From positions 1 through 51,533 of the forward strand of contig JBBRDV010000004.1 of assembly GCA_038203565.1 (NCBI GenBank): a DNA stretch of 51,533 bases, in the 5' to 3' direction. Every line of letters begins with the position of its first letter. The first letter of the stretch is position 1. Below the pieces are notes generated by a model. That model did no database searches and was not told the DNA's origin. It saw only the letters and a program-made list of their open reading frames with translations. The DNA is from Atribacterota bacterium. Lineage in GTDB: Bacteria; Atribacterota; Phoenicimicrobiia; Phoenicimicrobiales; Phoenicimicrobiaceae. This document shows positions 11,880-51,533 of this stretch, piece after piece. The position numbers were made by a program, and so were the translations under genes.

Positions 11880-12311
11880 ATGTTTTTAGGACAGTATGAG
11901 CACACTATCGATGAAAAGGGAAGATTGATTGTGCCGGCAAAATACCGTGAATCCTTAGGTGATAATTTTATTATTACTTTTGGTCTTGATACTTGTCTTT
12001 TTGTATATCCTCTGGAAGAATGGAAAAATTTATCTGAAAAAATGAAGCTGCTCCCCTTGGGACAGAGAGATGCCCGAGCATTTAAGAGGATAATATTTTC
12101 CCGAGCTACCGATTGCACCATAGATAATCAAGGTAGAGTCATTATTATGAAATATTTGAGAGATTATGCCCAAATTCATAAAGAAATTATGGTTATCGGG
12201 GTTTTAGATAGGATAGAGATCTGGAGTAAAGATATATGGCAAAAATACTTTAAAGAAGTTGAAAGTTCATATGAAGATATTGCCGAAAGAATATACGAAC
12301 AAGAAGGATAA
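11880..12311 (+). CDS. mraZ: Division/cell-wall cluster transcriptional repressor MraZ
   Basis: MFLGQYEHTIDEKGRL...DNQGRV. The ATG at 11880 follows AAGGAG; the ORF-track GTG start lies inside the operator. Confidence 0.96.
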   Translation: MFLGQYEHTIDEKGRLIVPAKYRESLGDNFIITFGLDTCLFVYPLEEWKNLSEKMKLLPLGQRDARAFKRIIFSRATDCTIDNQGRVIIMKYLRDYAQIHKEIMVIGVLDRIEIWSKDIWQKYFKEVESSYEDIAERIYEQEG

Positions 12312-12314
12312 TCT

Positions 12315-13247
12315 ATGGCAAATTCCTTTCACATTCCTGTGTTAACAAAAGAGATCTTAAATTATTTAAACTTAAAGAAAGGAGGTGTTTATATCGATTG
12401 CACCTTAGGGGGTGGAGGGCACTCCAAAGCTATTTTGGAAAAAATTTATCCCCATGGTTTATTGATCGGCATCGACCAGGATATAGAGGCAATTGAAACA
12501 GCAAAGGAAGAATTAAAAAGTTATATCGATAAAGTAAAATTAGTTAAAGGTAATTTCAAAAATTTAGAAGAGATTCTATCGGACTTAAAGACTGAAACAG
12601 TTTCGGGGATAATCTTTGATTTAGGAGTGTCCTTTCACCAATTAAAAGAGAAAGAACGAGGATTTAGTTTTAAAGAAGACAGCCATTTAGATATGCGTAT
12701 GGATTTAAATCAAGAATTTAACGCTGATATTTTGATCAATAGTTATTCGGAAAAAGATTTAGCTGAAATATTTGAAAAATATGGAGAAGAACGGTTTTCC
12801 AAGAGAATTGCCCGCTTAATTGTAATAGAACGAAAAAAGAAAACCATTACTACAACCAAGCAGTTAGCTGATTTAGTAATAAGGTCTCTTCCCAGGACTA
12901 AAAAGAGACACACCTGGAGAATACATCCCGCAACCAGGGTATTTCAGGCTATCAGGATTGAAGTAAACCAGGAACTTAAGGCTTTAGAAAAAGGGTTGAA
13001 TCAGGCCATTAGAGTGTTGGAGGATAAAGGAAGGATATGTGTTATTTCCTACCATTCACTAGAGGATAGGATAGTTAAACACCTATTTAAGGAAGCAGAA
13101 AGAGAAGGAAAAGAGCAAAAGAATTACGGATTGAAAATTGTAACTAAAAAACCAATTAAACCTTCTTTGGAGGAAGTAAGAGATAATCCTAAAGCAAGAA
13201 GCGCTAAATTAAGAGCGGCAGAGAAAATAATGTTGACAACAATATAA
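12315..13247 (+). CDS. rsmH: 16S rRNA m4C1402 methyltransferase RsmH (MraW)
   Basis: HIPVL, DCTLGGGGHS, HPATRVFQAIRIEVN and SYHSLEDR motifs. Confidence 0.97.
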   Translation: MANSFHIPVLTKEILNYLNLKKGGVYIDCTLGGGGHSKAILEKIYPHGLLIGIDQDIEAIETAKEELKSYIDKVKLVKGNFKNLEEILSDLKTETVSGIIFDLGVSFHQLKEKERGFSFKEDSHLDMRMDLNQEFNADILINSYSEKDLAEIFEKYGEERFSKRIARLIVIERKKKTITTTKQLADLVIRSLPRTKKRHTWRIHPATRVFQAIRIEVNQELKALEKGLNQAIRVLEDKGRICVISYHSLEDRIVKHLFKEAEREGKEQKNYGLKIVTKKPIKPSLEEVRDNPKARSAKLRAAEKIMLTTI

Positions 13248-48394: not shown

Positions 48395-48497
48395 ATAGAG
48401 AATAAAGATTTGACCCCAGTAATTTTATTGAAAATAATTTTAGCTTTTTGGGAAATAATTGCGATATAATTTAAATAAAAATTTAGGTGAAGCAATT

Positions 48498-49706
48498 TTG
48501 GAAACCGAAAAATCAGATCATAAAAAAAATAAAGCTAAAGATACAGTTTTAGAATTAGAATATGACCAACAGAATTATATTAAATACCTATTAGATTACT
48601 CCTCAGATTTTCAAATAACCCTGGATAGCCAAGGAAAGATTAGGAGAGTGAATCAGGTTTTTGAAGAAATGATCGGAAAAAAGAAGGAGGAATTAATTGG
48701 TAGTTTTATTTTTGAATTCATACCGGAAGAAATAATAAAAAAATTAAGAGATAAAATAATAATAGAAAAAAGGGTAAAGAATATAGAAATAAAGTTAAAG
48801 AGGCCAGGAAGGGAACTTTTAATTGGTGATTTCTCAGGTGTGGTATCCACTAGTAAAGAAGGAGAGACTATTATTTATCTAAGTGGTAGGGATATTGCTG
48901 CTGAAAGAAGAAAATTACAACAAAATCTTATGAAGTTAAATGAAAACTTAGAGAAAAAAGTAATGAAAAAAACCAAAGAATTAAGAAAAGCTCAAGACCA
49001 GCTTATTCAATCGGAAAAATTATCTGTAATCGGAGAATTGGTGACCGGTGTAGCCCATGAGGTTAGGAATCCTTTAGCTACCATAAGCCTAATTGTTCAA
49101 CATTTAGAGAGCAAATATTCTGATAATTACCCCATAGAAAAATTACAAGCAATTCAAAGAAATATAGATCGTATAGATAAGATTGTCTGTGGCTTGTTAA
49201 ATTTTTCTCATCCCCTTCGCTCTAATTTTGACTATCGCAATGTCAATGAAATAATAGAAAGATTAGAGCCGATTTTAAAGCATTCTCTTCCAGAGAATAT
49301 AAAGATCATTAAAAAATATGATCCAAAATTGCCCCAGAGCTGGTTTGATTCAGATTGCCTGGAACAGGTTTTTTTAAACTTAATTTCTAATGCCATACGG
49401 GCGATGAAATATGGTGGAGAACTTTATATTACTACCAGTTTTAATTCTACCCAGGAAGGAATAATAATAAGATTTGAAGATACGGGGGTAGGCATCCCGG
49501 AAGGAAATCTCAAAAAGATATTTAAACCCTTTTTTACTACTTATAAGGAAGGCACTGGTTTAGGCCTTTCTATTTGCCAGAATATCATCAAGGAACATAA
49601 GGGTAATATTTCGGTAGAGAGTAAGTTAGGAAAGGGGACAATTTTTACTATTTTCTTACCCCTGGAAAAAAGAAAAGAGAAAAAGCAGGTGGTGGATGCG
49701 ACATAA
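48498..49706 (+). CDS. Cytoplasmic PAS-domain sensor histidine kinase (NtrB/AtoS-like)
   Basis: PAS region, SEKLS..GE...GVAHEVRNPL, NLISNA, DTGVG and FFTT..GTGLGL. No TM segment. TTG at 48498 follows AGGTG (ORF-track start 48459). Confidence 0.92.
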   Translation: METEKSDHKKNKAKDTVLELEYDQQNYIKYLLDYSSDFQITLDSQGKIRRVNQVFEEMIGKKKEELIGSFIFEFIPEEIIKKLRDKIIIEKRVKNIEIKLKRPGRELLIGDFSGVVSTSKEGETIIYLSGRDIAAERRKLQQNLMKLNENLEKKVMKKTKELRKAQDQLIQSEKLSVIGELVTGVAHEVRNPLATISLIVQHLESKYSDNYPIEKLQAIQRNIDRIDKIVCGLLNFSHPLRSNFDYRNVNEIIERLEPILKHSLPENIKIIKKYDPKLPQSWFDSDCLEQVFLNLISNAIRAMKYGGELYITTSFNSTQEGIIIRFEDTGVGIPEGNLKKIFKPFFTTYKEGTGLGLSICQNIIKEHKGNISVESKLGKGTIFTIFLPLEKRKEKKQVVDAT

Positions 49707-51118
49707 TGACTAAGGCTAATATTTTAATCATTGATGATGAAGTAGATTTATGCCAGAGTCTGCTTGAATTATTAGAGGAGGAAGAATACAAAGTTTTTAT
49801 CGCCCATAGTGGTAAGGAAGGTTTGATAAAGGTCAAAGAAAATTTACCTGATTTAGTCCTTTTAGATATAAAGATGACCGGAATAGATGGGATTGAGACT
49901 TTAGAGAGAATAACAGCCATTGATAAGGATATTCAAGTGATTATGTTAACTGCTTATCAGACTGTAGAAACTGCAGTAAAGGCGATGAAACTGGGAGCTT
50001 ACGATTATATTAGTAAGCCTTTTAACTATGAAGAATTAAAGATAATCATTAAAAGAGCTCTTCAGGCTCATGATTTATCTCAAGAAGTAATTTCCTTAAG
50101 AGATCAACTGAGAGACAAATTTAGTTTTAAGAATATTATTGGAAAGAGCGATAAAATAAAAGAAGTGCTGTATAAGATTGAAAAGGTTGCTCCCACCAAT
50201 GCCACTGTGTTGATTAGAGGAGATAGCGGTTCCGGGAAAGAATTAATTGCGAAGACTATTCATCAATATAGTCCCAGAAGAGATAGACCATTTATAGCCG
50301 TTGATTGCGCCAGCTTGCCAGAGACTTTAATAGAGAGTGAATTATTTGGGCATACTAAGGGGGCCTTTACCGGGGCAATAGCGAAAAAAATAGGTAAATT
50401 TGAATTAGCGCAAAGCGGGACACTTTTTTTAGATGAGATTGGTAATTTAACAGTTAATATTCAAGCTAAGCTATTAAGAGCACTTCAGGAAGGGGAGATA
50501 AACCGTATCGGAGAAAAGTATCCGATTAAAATTGACGTGCGATTGATCATTGCCAGTAATACTAATTTAGAAGAGGATATAAAAAGAGGGACTTTTAGAG
50601 AAGACTTATATTATCGTATAAATGTTTTTTCTATCTTCCTTCCTGCTTTAAAGGAAAGAAAAGAAGATATACCTTTATTAGCCTTGCATTTTCTAAATCA
50701 ATATAACTCGATTTTGGGAAAAAATATCAAGAATATCTCGGAAGAAAGTATAAAATTGCTGATAAATTATTCCTGGCCAGGTAATGTTCGAGAACTTCAA
50801 AATGTTATCCAGCAGGCCATTATTATGGCTGAAGATATTATTATTCTACCAGAGCATTTACCTTTTTATATAAGAGAGAACAAAGTAGGGGCAGACTTTA
50901 TACCTACTCTCCTATCGGAAAAAGACCAGGATAATTTCCCCCACGACTTCTCCCTTAAAAAAAATATTAGCCAACTTTCTCGAGATACGGAAAGAAGAAT
51001 TATTTTAGAAGTGTTAAAAAGAGCTAATTGGAATAAGGCTGAAGCAGCTAGATTATTAAAGATAAATTATAAAACCCTCTATCTAAAGATTAAAGAATAT
51101 GACCTTCACCCTACTTAA
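49706..51118 (+). CDS. Sigma54-dependent response regulator (NtrC family bacterial enhancer-binding protein)
   Basis: REC domain (DD, D, K), GDSGSGKE, ELFGH.KGAFTGA, WPGNVREL and a Fis-type HTH. Its start overlaps the kinase stop codon. Confidence 0.95.
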   Translation: MTKANILIIDDEVDLCQSLLELLEEEEYKVFIAHSGKEGLIKVKENLPDLVLLDIKMTGIDGIETLERITAIDKDIQVIMLTAYQTVETAVKAMKLGAYDYISKPFNYEELKIIIKRALQAHDLSQEVISLRDQLRDKFSFKNIIGKSDKIKEVLYKIEKVAPTNATVLIRGDSGSGKELIAKTIHQYSPRRDRPFIAVDCASLPETLIESELFGHTKGAFTGAIAKKIGKFELAQSGTLFLDEIGNLTVNIQAKLLRALQEGEINRIGEKYPIKIDVRLIIASNTNLEEDIKRGTFREDLYYRINVFSIFLPALKERKEDIPLLALHFLNQYNSILGKNIKNISEESIKLLINYSWPGNVRELQNVIQQAIIMAEDIIILPEHLPFYIRENKVGADFIPTLLSEKDQDNFPHDFSLKKNISQLSRDTERRIILEVLKRANWNKAEAARLLKINYKTLYLKIKEYDLHPT

Positions 51119-51142
51119 TTCTTAGAGATGAAATTTATGGTA

Positions 51143-51188
51143 ACCCTATTTATGGTCAATAGACCATAAATAGGGTAGGGAAACCATA
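51143..51188. promoter_or_regulatory. Candidate upstream activator (enhancer) sites
   Basis: Perfect 15-bp inverted repeat ACCCTATTTATGGTC / GACCATAAATAGGGT. It resolves into two TA(T/G)GGT-N6-ACCATA sites at 51151 and 51171. Confidence 0.55.
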
Positions 51189-51317
51189 GAAAAAGGAATA
51201 AAATAAAATAAAATAATTAAAAAAAAGAATCAAAAATAAATAATATTAAATTAAAATTCCTTATTATCAATGCATTTGGAAAAATCCGAATGCATTTTTT
51301 ATTTTTATCGGTTAAGT

Positions 51318-51333
51318 TGGCACACTAATTGCT
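51318..51333 (+). promoter_or_regulatory. Sigma54 (-24/-12) promoter of gvpA
   Basis: TGGCAC-ACTAA-TTGCT matches the TGGCAC-N5-TTGCW consensus exactly. Confidence 0.88.
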
Positions 51334-51424
51334 TACTATAAGTATATAGAAATAAAAATTTACCAAAAGAAGTACTTAATCTCTTTGGGTAGAAAATCTA
51401 AAAAATGAAAGGAGGTGAAAAATA

Positions 51425-51533
51425 ATGGCAGTAGAAAAATCAATGGCATCTTCAAGTTTAGTAGAAGTTGTAGACAGAATATTGGACAAAGGTATAGTAA
51501 TCGATGCTTGGGTCAGAGTGTCCTTAGTAGGTA
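51425..51533 (+). CDS. gvpA: Gas vesicle structural protein GvpA, 5' part (runs off window)
   Basis: Not in the ORF track. AAGGAGGTG RBS, then [36 protein letters not shown], matching the canonical GvpA N-terminus. Confidence 0.93.

Follow-up and report, generated by a model that had tools for sequence, protein, structure and literature searches.

A predicted sigma-54 control cassette and its probable two-component pair at the head of an Atribacterota gas-vesicle gene cluster

Gas vesicles in part of the phylum Atribacterota appear to be placed under sigma-54 control by a two-component system encoded next to the structural genes. The window analyzed here, a stretch of 51,533 nucleotides, is the whole of one contig (C4; JBBRDV010000004.1) of an Atribacterota genome (GCA_038203565.1) of 1.97 Mb in 218 contigs, rated 99% complete. 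Its last part carries genes for a histidine kinase and a sigma-54 activator, a 306-bp intergenic region (51119-51424) and the beginning of the gas-vesicle gene gvpA. We consider it probable that a gas-vesicle operon begins here, with its control region and first gene, and that the pair encoded upstream activates it through sigma-54. Sigma-54/two-component control had been proposed by a first reading of this DNA from its letters alone (the original prediction) and is very probably correct; the kind of control is a known one, since work on GvrA and rpoN in Serratia has already established the mechanism.

An ATG at 51425, which the original prediction had picked out as an unannotated gvpA start, follows a ribosome-binding site (AGGAGGTG, 51410-51417), and the first 36 codons of the gene (51425..51533, + strand) match Pfam Gas_vesicle (E 4e-11). 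Solely the contig end cuts the gene: the final 119 bases of C4 are the reverse complement of the end of contig C28, this 119-mer is found in no other contig, and the remainder of gvpA lies on C28, giving a protein of 68 amino acids that matches NCBIfam GvpA (E 6e-39). C28 (17.3 kb) continues with some 20 genes after gvpA, all on one strand and separated by short gaps. First come genes for proteins of 260, 295 and 132 amino acids, GvpN, a 130-aa unknown protein, GvpF and Hsp20; these are followed by a 191-aa unknown protein, a Cdc48-type double AAA ATPase, and GvpF, GvpG, GvpO, GvpJ, GvpK and GvpL; the last genes encode a 254-aa GvpM-like protein, a 241-aa sensor-less kinase, a 207-aa receiver, a 429-aa protein with an Hsp20-like end and a PAS-GAF-HD-GYP protein. 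With gvpA joined by gvpN, gvpF/L, gvpG, gvpJ/M and gvpK, this is a complete gas-vesicle gene set; the GvpN match (346 bits) is above its cut-off, and three proteins of the cluster match GvpL_GvpF. The accessory genes expected downstream are present across the 119-base overlap, and gvpA is neither an orphan nor truncated. The 260-, 295- and 132-aa proteins gave no match to known gas-vesicle families, and the GvpC family found no match in the cluster; the 295-aa protein, a helical repeat protein encoded two genes past gvpA, is weakly Apolipoprotein-like and SpoIIID-like.

The gene is probably present as two tandem copies (window 51377-51533 and L008:17109-17325, on C28), and for that reason the assembly would break inside gvpA. 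Run X1 has a depth of 23.9 over gvpA versus 12.6 upstream, and a 96-base contig links the 3' end of a gvpA to 51377-51418. Another contig of the same run spans the DNA from the activator gene, across the promoter, as far as 51418 with zero differences. Run X1 is not independent evidence, because it may be the source of this DNA. Tandem gvpA copies, identical to each other, are also found in relative G016 and in three metagenome contigs (L118, L132 and L136).

Could the cluster be silent, or serve a role other than buoyancy, as discussed for Streptomyces? We regard this as improbable. Clusters of gvp genes without vesicles do exist, according to PMC4982088, but each gvp frame examined here is open, with a family match over the curated cut-off where one applies. 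Selection is also suggested by the orthologues of GvpA, GvpN and GvpF, which share 75-100% identity with the query in several genera.

Between the activator gene and gvpA lies a perfect sigma-54 -24/-12 element (TGGCAC-N5-TTGC, here TGGCACACTAATTGC; 51318..51332, + strand). It is intergenic and directed towards gvpA on the same strand, 200 bp beyond the stop of the activator gene and with the gvpA ATG 93 bp further on, in agreement with the promoter originally placed about 90 bp upstream of the gene. Its GG and GC dinucleotides are exactly ten bases apart and, from the usual -12 spacing, transcription is predicted to start near 51344. A consensus scan of the + strand between the -12 element and gvpA (51333-51424) found no sigma-70-like site. 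The element is the only -24/-12 match in the window with one mismatch allowed, a result that is not significant alone, because at least one match was also found in 65 of 100 shuffles. The significance of the site rests instead on the genome-wide picture, where perfect TGGCAC-N5-TTGC sites number seven versus the ~1.2 expected by base composition. C28 holds no further sigma-54-like site (two matches with two mismatches, versus 6.95 expected).

The genome encodes the machinery that such a promoter would use. A full-length rpoN, whose presence the original prediction had set out as a check, is found as a 509-aa open reading frame on contig C9 with all three domains (Sigma54_AID, Sigma54_CBD and Sigma54_DBD). 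There are five true sigma-54 activator genes, and in four of these (on C4, C34, C68 and C163) a -24/-12 element lies 200-350 bp past the stop codon, intergenic, on the same strand and before the next gene; the promoter of the fifth (C6) lies ~4 kb upstream of its gene. The promoters of the four activators other than the one on C4 (C34:12203, C68:3134, C163:133 on the - strand and C6:41725 on the - strand) have their own upstream repeats each, and activators and promoters in this small genome come close to a one-to-one map.

The kinase and activator genes overlap at a TAATG that joins the kinase stop to the activator ATG. The kinase (48498..49706, + strand) has Pfam PAS, HisKA and HATPase_c domains and lacks any hydrophobic, transmembrane-like stretch (the 19-residue Kyte-Doolittle mean peaks at 0.95), which supports the cytoplasmic location first suggested for the sensor. 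Its TTG start at 48498 is also the first in-frame start in two orthologous open reading frames; an alternative TTG upstream, at 48459, is open too. Orthologues of the kinase are 74-85% identical in six named loci, with one more at 54%. The activator (49706..51118, + strand) is a receiver-type NtrC-family enhancer-binding protein by its domains and motifs. Pfam finds Response_reg (E 3e-30), the AAA+ domain Sigma54_activat (E 1e-70), AAA_lid_14 and a Fis-type helix-turn-helix, HTH_8 (E 7e-13). GAFTGA is at residues 219-224 (nt 50360-50377), Walker A (GSGKE) runs from residue 175 (nt 50228-50242), Walker B reads LFLDE, and the phospho-acceptor of the receiver is Asp54. Domains, motifs and gene overlap together bear out the translationally coupled soluble PAS kinase and GAFTGA activator of the original prediction. 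The closest solved chains to the activator, 4l4u, 3dzd and 1ny5 (E 5e-97 to 2e-93), carry the sole label 'Transcriptional regulator (NtrC family)'; we take them to be Aquifex aeolicus NtrC4 and NtrC1. The best NCBIfam matches of kinase and activator are AtoS and AtoC, both under the cut-off. A candidate sigma-70-type promoter for the two genes (48410..48438, + strand; TTGACC-17-AATAAT) agrees with the consensus at 10 of 12 positions, and is weak, such sites being no commoner in the region than in shuffles.

The arrangement is conserved wherever relatives can be read. The promoter (TTGGCACG-N4-TTGCTTA) is kept in all four relatives, among species genomes, whose gvpA contig reaches upstream; in three of them the kinase (76-85% identical) and activator (88-95%) are encoded directly upstream, and the contig of the fourth ends first. 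Three named-record loci match contigs of these relatives and were counted once. We also searched metagenome contigs with the hairpin-plus-promoter pattern described below and obtained 38, with the activator gene directly upstream in 28. A small receiver gene lies downstream in 30, followed by gvpA in 24; six contigs end soon after the receiver gene. The remaining eight have neither receiver nor gvpA (seven precede other genes and one ends after 128 bp). These counts overstate independence, because several contigs look like one population resampled. The kinase-activator-gvpA order anticipated by the original prediction is kept in the three readable genome contigs, the fourth being cut short, as well as in 24 metagenome contigs. 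The named genome records with the closest activator loci (77-95% identity) are, with the exception of L021 (below), titled Atribacteria or Atribacterota, Candidatus Sediminicultor included, in support of the Atribacterota-like host suspected from the DNA. Among 72 more distant activator loci (at most 51% identity; Nitrospirota, Desulfobacterales and others), no gvp gene was found within ~6 kb. More distant families with gvpN (G059, G064, G080, also G024 and G001) are not informative on the promoter, because their contigs end before it.

This conservation also bears on which activator serves the promoter. The genome's four further sigma-54 activators leave room for a scheme in which the promoter is real and answers to one of them, with the adjoining pair controlling something else. 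Three of the four, however, each have a promoter of their own just downstream with different upstream DNA, and that of the last lies ~4 kb upstream of its gene; the DNA upstream of all these promoters is unrelated to the sequence before gvpA. Together with the adjacency of activator and gvpA-type promoter region in 28 of 38 metagenome contigs and three of three readable genome contigs, this makes service by another activator very unlikely, and argues for the adjoining pair.

To define the control region, we aligned ten examples of it from seven loci. They share a cassette of ~200 bp composed of four blocks: tandem palindromes, an A-rich spacer, a hairpin and the -24/-12 element, in which TTGGCA and TGC are invariant in all ten. 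A profile search of the genome (nhmmer) found the cassette at C4:51144-51341 only (E 2e-40; next E 0.08). The tandem palindromes, of the form TATGGT-N6-ACCATA (TATGGTCAATAGACCATA, 51151-51168, and TAGGGTAGGGAAACCATA, 51171-51188), are proposed as upstream activating sequences (UAS). Their centers are 20 bp apart, at ~-184 and ~-164 relative to the predicted start; all ten aligned cassettes carry the ACCATA half-sites unchanged, and the exact palindrome motif has one occurrence in the genome. At least two ACCATA are present in 31 of the 37 metagenome cassettes that have at least 140 bp upstream, some of them without an adjoining activator gene. The palindromes likewise accompany the promoter with no activator gene adjacent in the second cassette copies of loci L020 and L021 and in eight non-gvp metagenome cassettes. 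Because they travel with the promoter even there, they are read as functional cis-elements, and are likely the activator sites. The A/T-rich, A-tract-rich spacer between UAS and promoter (51189..51268), a reading of the sequence that is partly conserved in the alignment, may bend the DNA.

Immediately before the promoter, a terminator scan marks a 12-bp hairpin (51269-51296) with a T-run, together spanning 51269..51306 on the + strand. It would end transcripts 12-22 bp before the -24 element and has 12 pairs, four of them G-C, and the tail TTTTATTTTT. We predict that it is the terminator of the kinase/activator transcript and insulates the sigma-54 promoter. The same 28-bp palindrome could instead be a binding site for a protein, whether the activator, a repressor or a bending protein: it is a near-perfect inverted repeat, its center ~60 bp before the start, all ten cassettes keep it, and symmetric changes would also suit a dimeric protein. 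This we think unlikely. Across the alignment, 99.2% of cells are paired and three pairs have changed on both sides, but where the arms differ they form U-G or G-U pairs (in six and four of the ten rows) that are valid in + strand RNA only. The T-run after the stem is invariant, and an A-run precedes the stem in several copies. Finally, the fold (-14.8 kcal/mol, z -4.99) was equalled by none of 200 shuffles. It is because of these strand-specific pairs, the T-run, the terminator scan and the fold that the palindrome is read as a terminator. A second hairpin (51359..51393, + strand), within the 5' untranslated leader of gvpA and ahead of its ribosome-binding site, is a weak prediction, its fold being no better than shuffles (z -0.52); relatives have a 12-bp stem at this position with one compensatory change, by eye. 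A possible attenuator after gvpA was set aside (fold z -0.24, not above shuffles).

Taken in order along the DNA, these elements suggest the following mechanism. The soluble PAS kinase would sense a cytoplasmic signal and phosphorylate the activator at Asp54. The activator would then assemble on the two TATGGT-N6-ACCATA sites ~165-185 bp upstream of the start and contact the sigma-54 holoenzyme across the A-rich spacer, with ATP and the GAFTGA loop opening the promoter. From ~51344, the transcript would run through gvpA, probably in two copies, into the ~20 same-strand genes of C28. The terminator before the -24 element would block read-through from the constitutively transcribed kinase and activator genes, so that gvpA is proposed to stay off without the activator. 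The pairing of protein and site, the transcription start, the length of the operon, the signal and the production of vesicles are here inferred from sequence.

At all 28 other gvpA-bearing cassette loci (four genome, 24 metagenome), a receiver-only gene of ~120 amino acids lies between promoter and gvpA. The present genome alone lacks it, with gvpA directly after the promoter (51333-51424, versus L012:6112-6700 and likewise L009, L010 and L011). By tblastn, an orthologue of the small receiver is absent from the genome, the best matches being other receiver domains at ~35% identity. The junction is at ATATAGAA, a sequence that in relative G025 stands at either side of the receiver gene (by eye), and loss of the gene fits a deletion between short ATATAGAA repeats.

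In relatives, the cassette is also found in front of genes other than those for gas vesicles. At L017 it precedes the small receiver and a REC-PAS-GAF gene, with no gvpA. Activator orthologues are encoded at L020 (80% identical) and L021 (77%), in each case ahead of two cassette copies. The copies precede a CheB-CheR-PAS fusion and lie after a hybrid kinase, and the stretches in view hold no gvp genes. Seven metagenome cassettes (L105, L106, L107, L122, L123, L128 and L135) stand before genes for a ParA-like ATPase and for surface or secreted proteins (VWA, PEGA, PRC-barrel/cupredoxin and CarboxypepD_reg). Some of those seven have no activator gene within 2 kb. L021, titled Desulfosalsimonadaceae, has two cassette copies and an activator with 77% identity to that of the Atribacterota, and may be an Atribacterota contig wrongly binned.

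One account of these copies, to which we give a chance a little short of even, is that a portable cassette of ~200 bp has been copied before unrelated Atribacterota operons to form a signalling and cell-surface regulon into which gas vesicles were plugged, the present genome being a deletion variant. If true, gas vesicles in a genome that has lost the receiver gene are predicted to be expressed without feedback and therefore in an altered way. The corresponding alternative for the activator, that it acts on a whole regulon of signalling and cell-surface genes in which gas vesicles are one captured target, the pair then being no gas-vesicle switch as such, is possible and nearly as credible as its opposite. 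In its favor are the activator orthologues of L020 and L021 with their paired cassettes, CheB-CheR-PAS fusion and hybrid kinase in place of gvp genes; the arrangement at L017; and the eight of 38 metagenome cassettes that lack both receiver and gvpA, seven of them placed before other genes. Against it, the cassette is single in the present genome and stands before gvpA. The two readings therefore coincide here, and a regulon would alter the evolutionary story, not the local mechanism. The pair that the original prediction called 'dedicated' to gas vesicles deserves the word in the present genome with its single-copy cassette; it does not in relatives, where the cassette also precedes signalling and secreted-protein genes.

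Several points weigh against control of the gas-vesicle operon by the adjoining pair as we have drawn it. Because the cassettes of relatives precede signalling and secreted-protein genes, and would drive them, the activator appears not to be gas-vesicle-specific by nature. Which protein binds which site is assigned provisionally, by position and conservation, and the UAS centers (~-165 and ~-185) are somewhat farther out than in many textbook cases. The kinase and receiver encoded at the far end of the cluster could feed into the switch or bypass it. RNA-library contigs 85-97% alike span the gvpA start in X15, X16 and X17, but these data are assembled contigs from relatives, in which start, strand and level are not readable, and none spans 51190-51367. 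Finally, gas-vesicle genes are patchy across the phylum, and their function in this lineage is putative: 11 of 86 species genomes have a GvpN match (seven of 29, two of 11 and one of 17 in three families, and none of the remaining 28 genomes), and Pfam Gas_vesicle matched in 10 of 61 relatives, the present genome included.

The nearest precedent for activation of gas-vesicle genes through sigma-54 comes from Serratia sp. ATCC 39006. There, gvpA1 has a consensus sigma-54 site upstream of its mapped start and needs the NtrC-like GvrA (PMC4982088), and an rpoN mutant makes no vesicles and loses transcription of the gvpA1 operon (PMC11778176). The original prediction had instead pointed to GvpD/GvpE, as the best-studied control of gas vesicles in haloarchaea; that system shares with ours regulators encoded beside the gas-vesicle genes, but is an archaeal activator/repressor pair with another mechanism, and neither family had a match among the 22 cluster proteins scanned. 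In both Serratia and the present genome, gvpA comes first in the structural operon and is preceded by a consensus -24/-12 site, the gene for an NtrC-family activator adjoins the cluster, and further regulatory genes lie at the far end; rpoN is required in Serratia and encoded here. In Proteobacteria, according to PMC4982088, a second operon is usually headed by gvrA and includes gvrB and gvrC, and the Serratia activator heads such an operon with gvpF2, gvpF3, gvrB and gvrC. By contrast, the activator gene here, accompanied by a PAS kinase gene of its own, immediately precedes gvpA on one strand, the promoter has a predicted insulating terminator and belongs to a copied cassette, the phylum is another, and relatives of the present genome have the small receiver as the first transcribed gene. 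The activator is likened to GvrA by its family and its place beside the cluster. With respect to the NtrB/NtrC class (AtoS/AtoC, ZraS/ZraR), the domain order of both proteins is the same, but the target here is an organelle operon rather than nitrogen, acetoacetate or zinc genes, and the kinase, a soluble protein, has one PAS domain.

A second two-component pair lies at the far end of the cluster (L008:3973-5428, C28, - strand), its kinase sensor-less. The kinase shares 41% and the receiver 38% identity with its counterpart in the first pair, and both belong to the same subfamily. The receiver (207 aa) has an N-terminal extension of ~85 aa and recurs at the cluster's far end in G002. We take GvrB and GvrC to be a kinase and a receiver, an assumption confirmed neither by PMC4982088, in which 'kinase' and 'response regulator' do not occur, nor by the GvrB/GvrC passage of PMC5601083, which gives no domains; if it holds, the far-end pair may parallel gvrB and gvrC. 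The PAS-GAF-HD-GYP protein encoded after the pair hints at a link to cyclic di-GMP.

As for other literature, gvrA, gvrB and gvrC are merely listed in PMC9501494, and PMC2405808 and PMC4046663 mention sigma-54 and gas vesicles apart, without linking them. Among the full-text matches listed (10 of 112 in the widest search), no paper was found that connects Atribacterota with gas vesicles; PMC8382752 names Atribacteria in a reference only. A paper containing 'Sediminicultor' was not among the gas-vesicle matches of the full-text search.

Other features of these loci deserve mention. Inside the cluster, the Cdc48-type double AAA ATPase and Hsp20 are encoded at L008:9452-11605 and 12202-12729 (- strand). 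The Gas_vesicle domain of the GvpM-like protein (L008:5523-6284, - strand) spans residues 10-48 of 254, and its tail of ~200 residues gave no Pfam match. At L009 (G002:C105), an insert of ~1 kb separates the activator stop from the UAS, with repeated GC-rich palindromes of the GTAGGGGC...GCCCC type at its flanks; shorter GC-rich palindromes occur past the activator stop in several relatives, and not in the present genome. Upstream of the kinase at L017, a fragment of an IS200-like Y1 transposase is found (L017:4046-4618; Pfam Y1_Tnp, E 3e-6).

This locus does not change the understanding of sigma-54 gas-vesicle control, which was worked out in Serratia. Its interest lies in the host phylum, in a well-defined cassette and its copying, and in a natural loss of the receiver gene. 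Here a compact sigma-54 cassette comes with defined candidate activator sites and a predicted insulator, and a natural variant without the promoter-proximal receiver gene is on hand for comparison. Atribacterota, a phylum almost without cultured members, abound in anoxic sediments and waters. Since a complete set of genes for a flotation organelle, apparently under tight control, is conserved in part of this phylum, certain members may position themselves in anoxic water columns.

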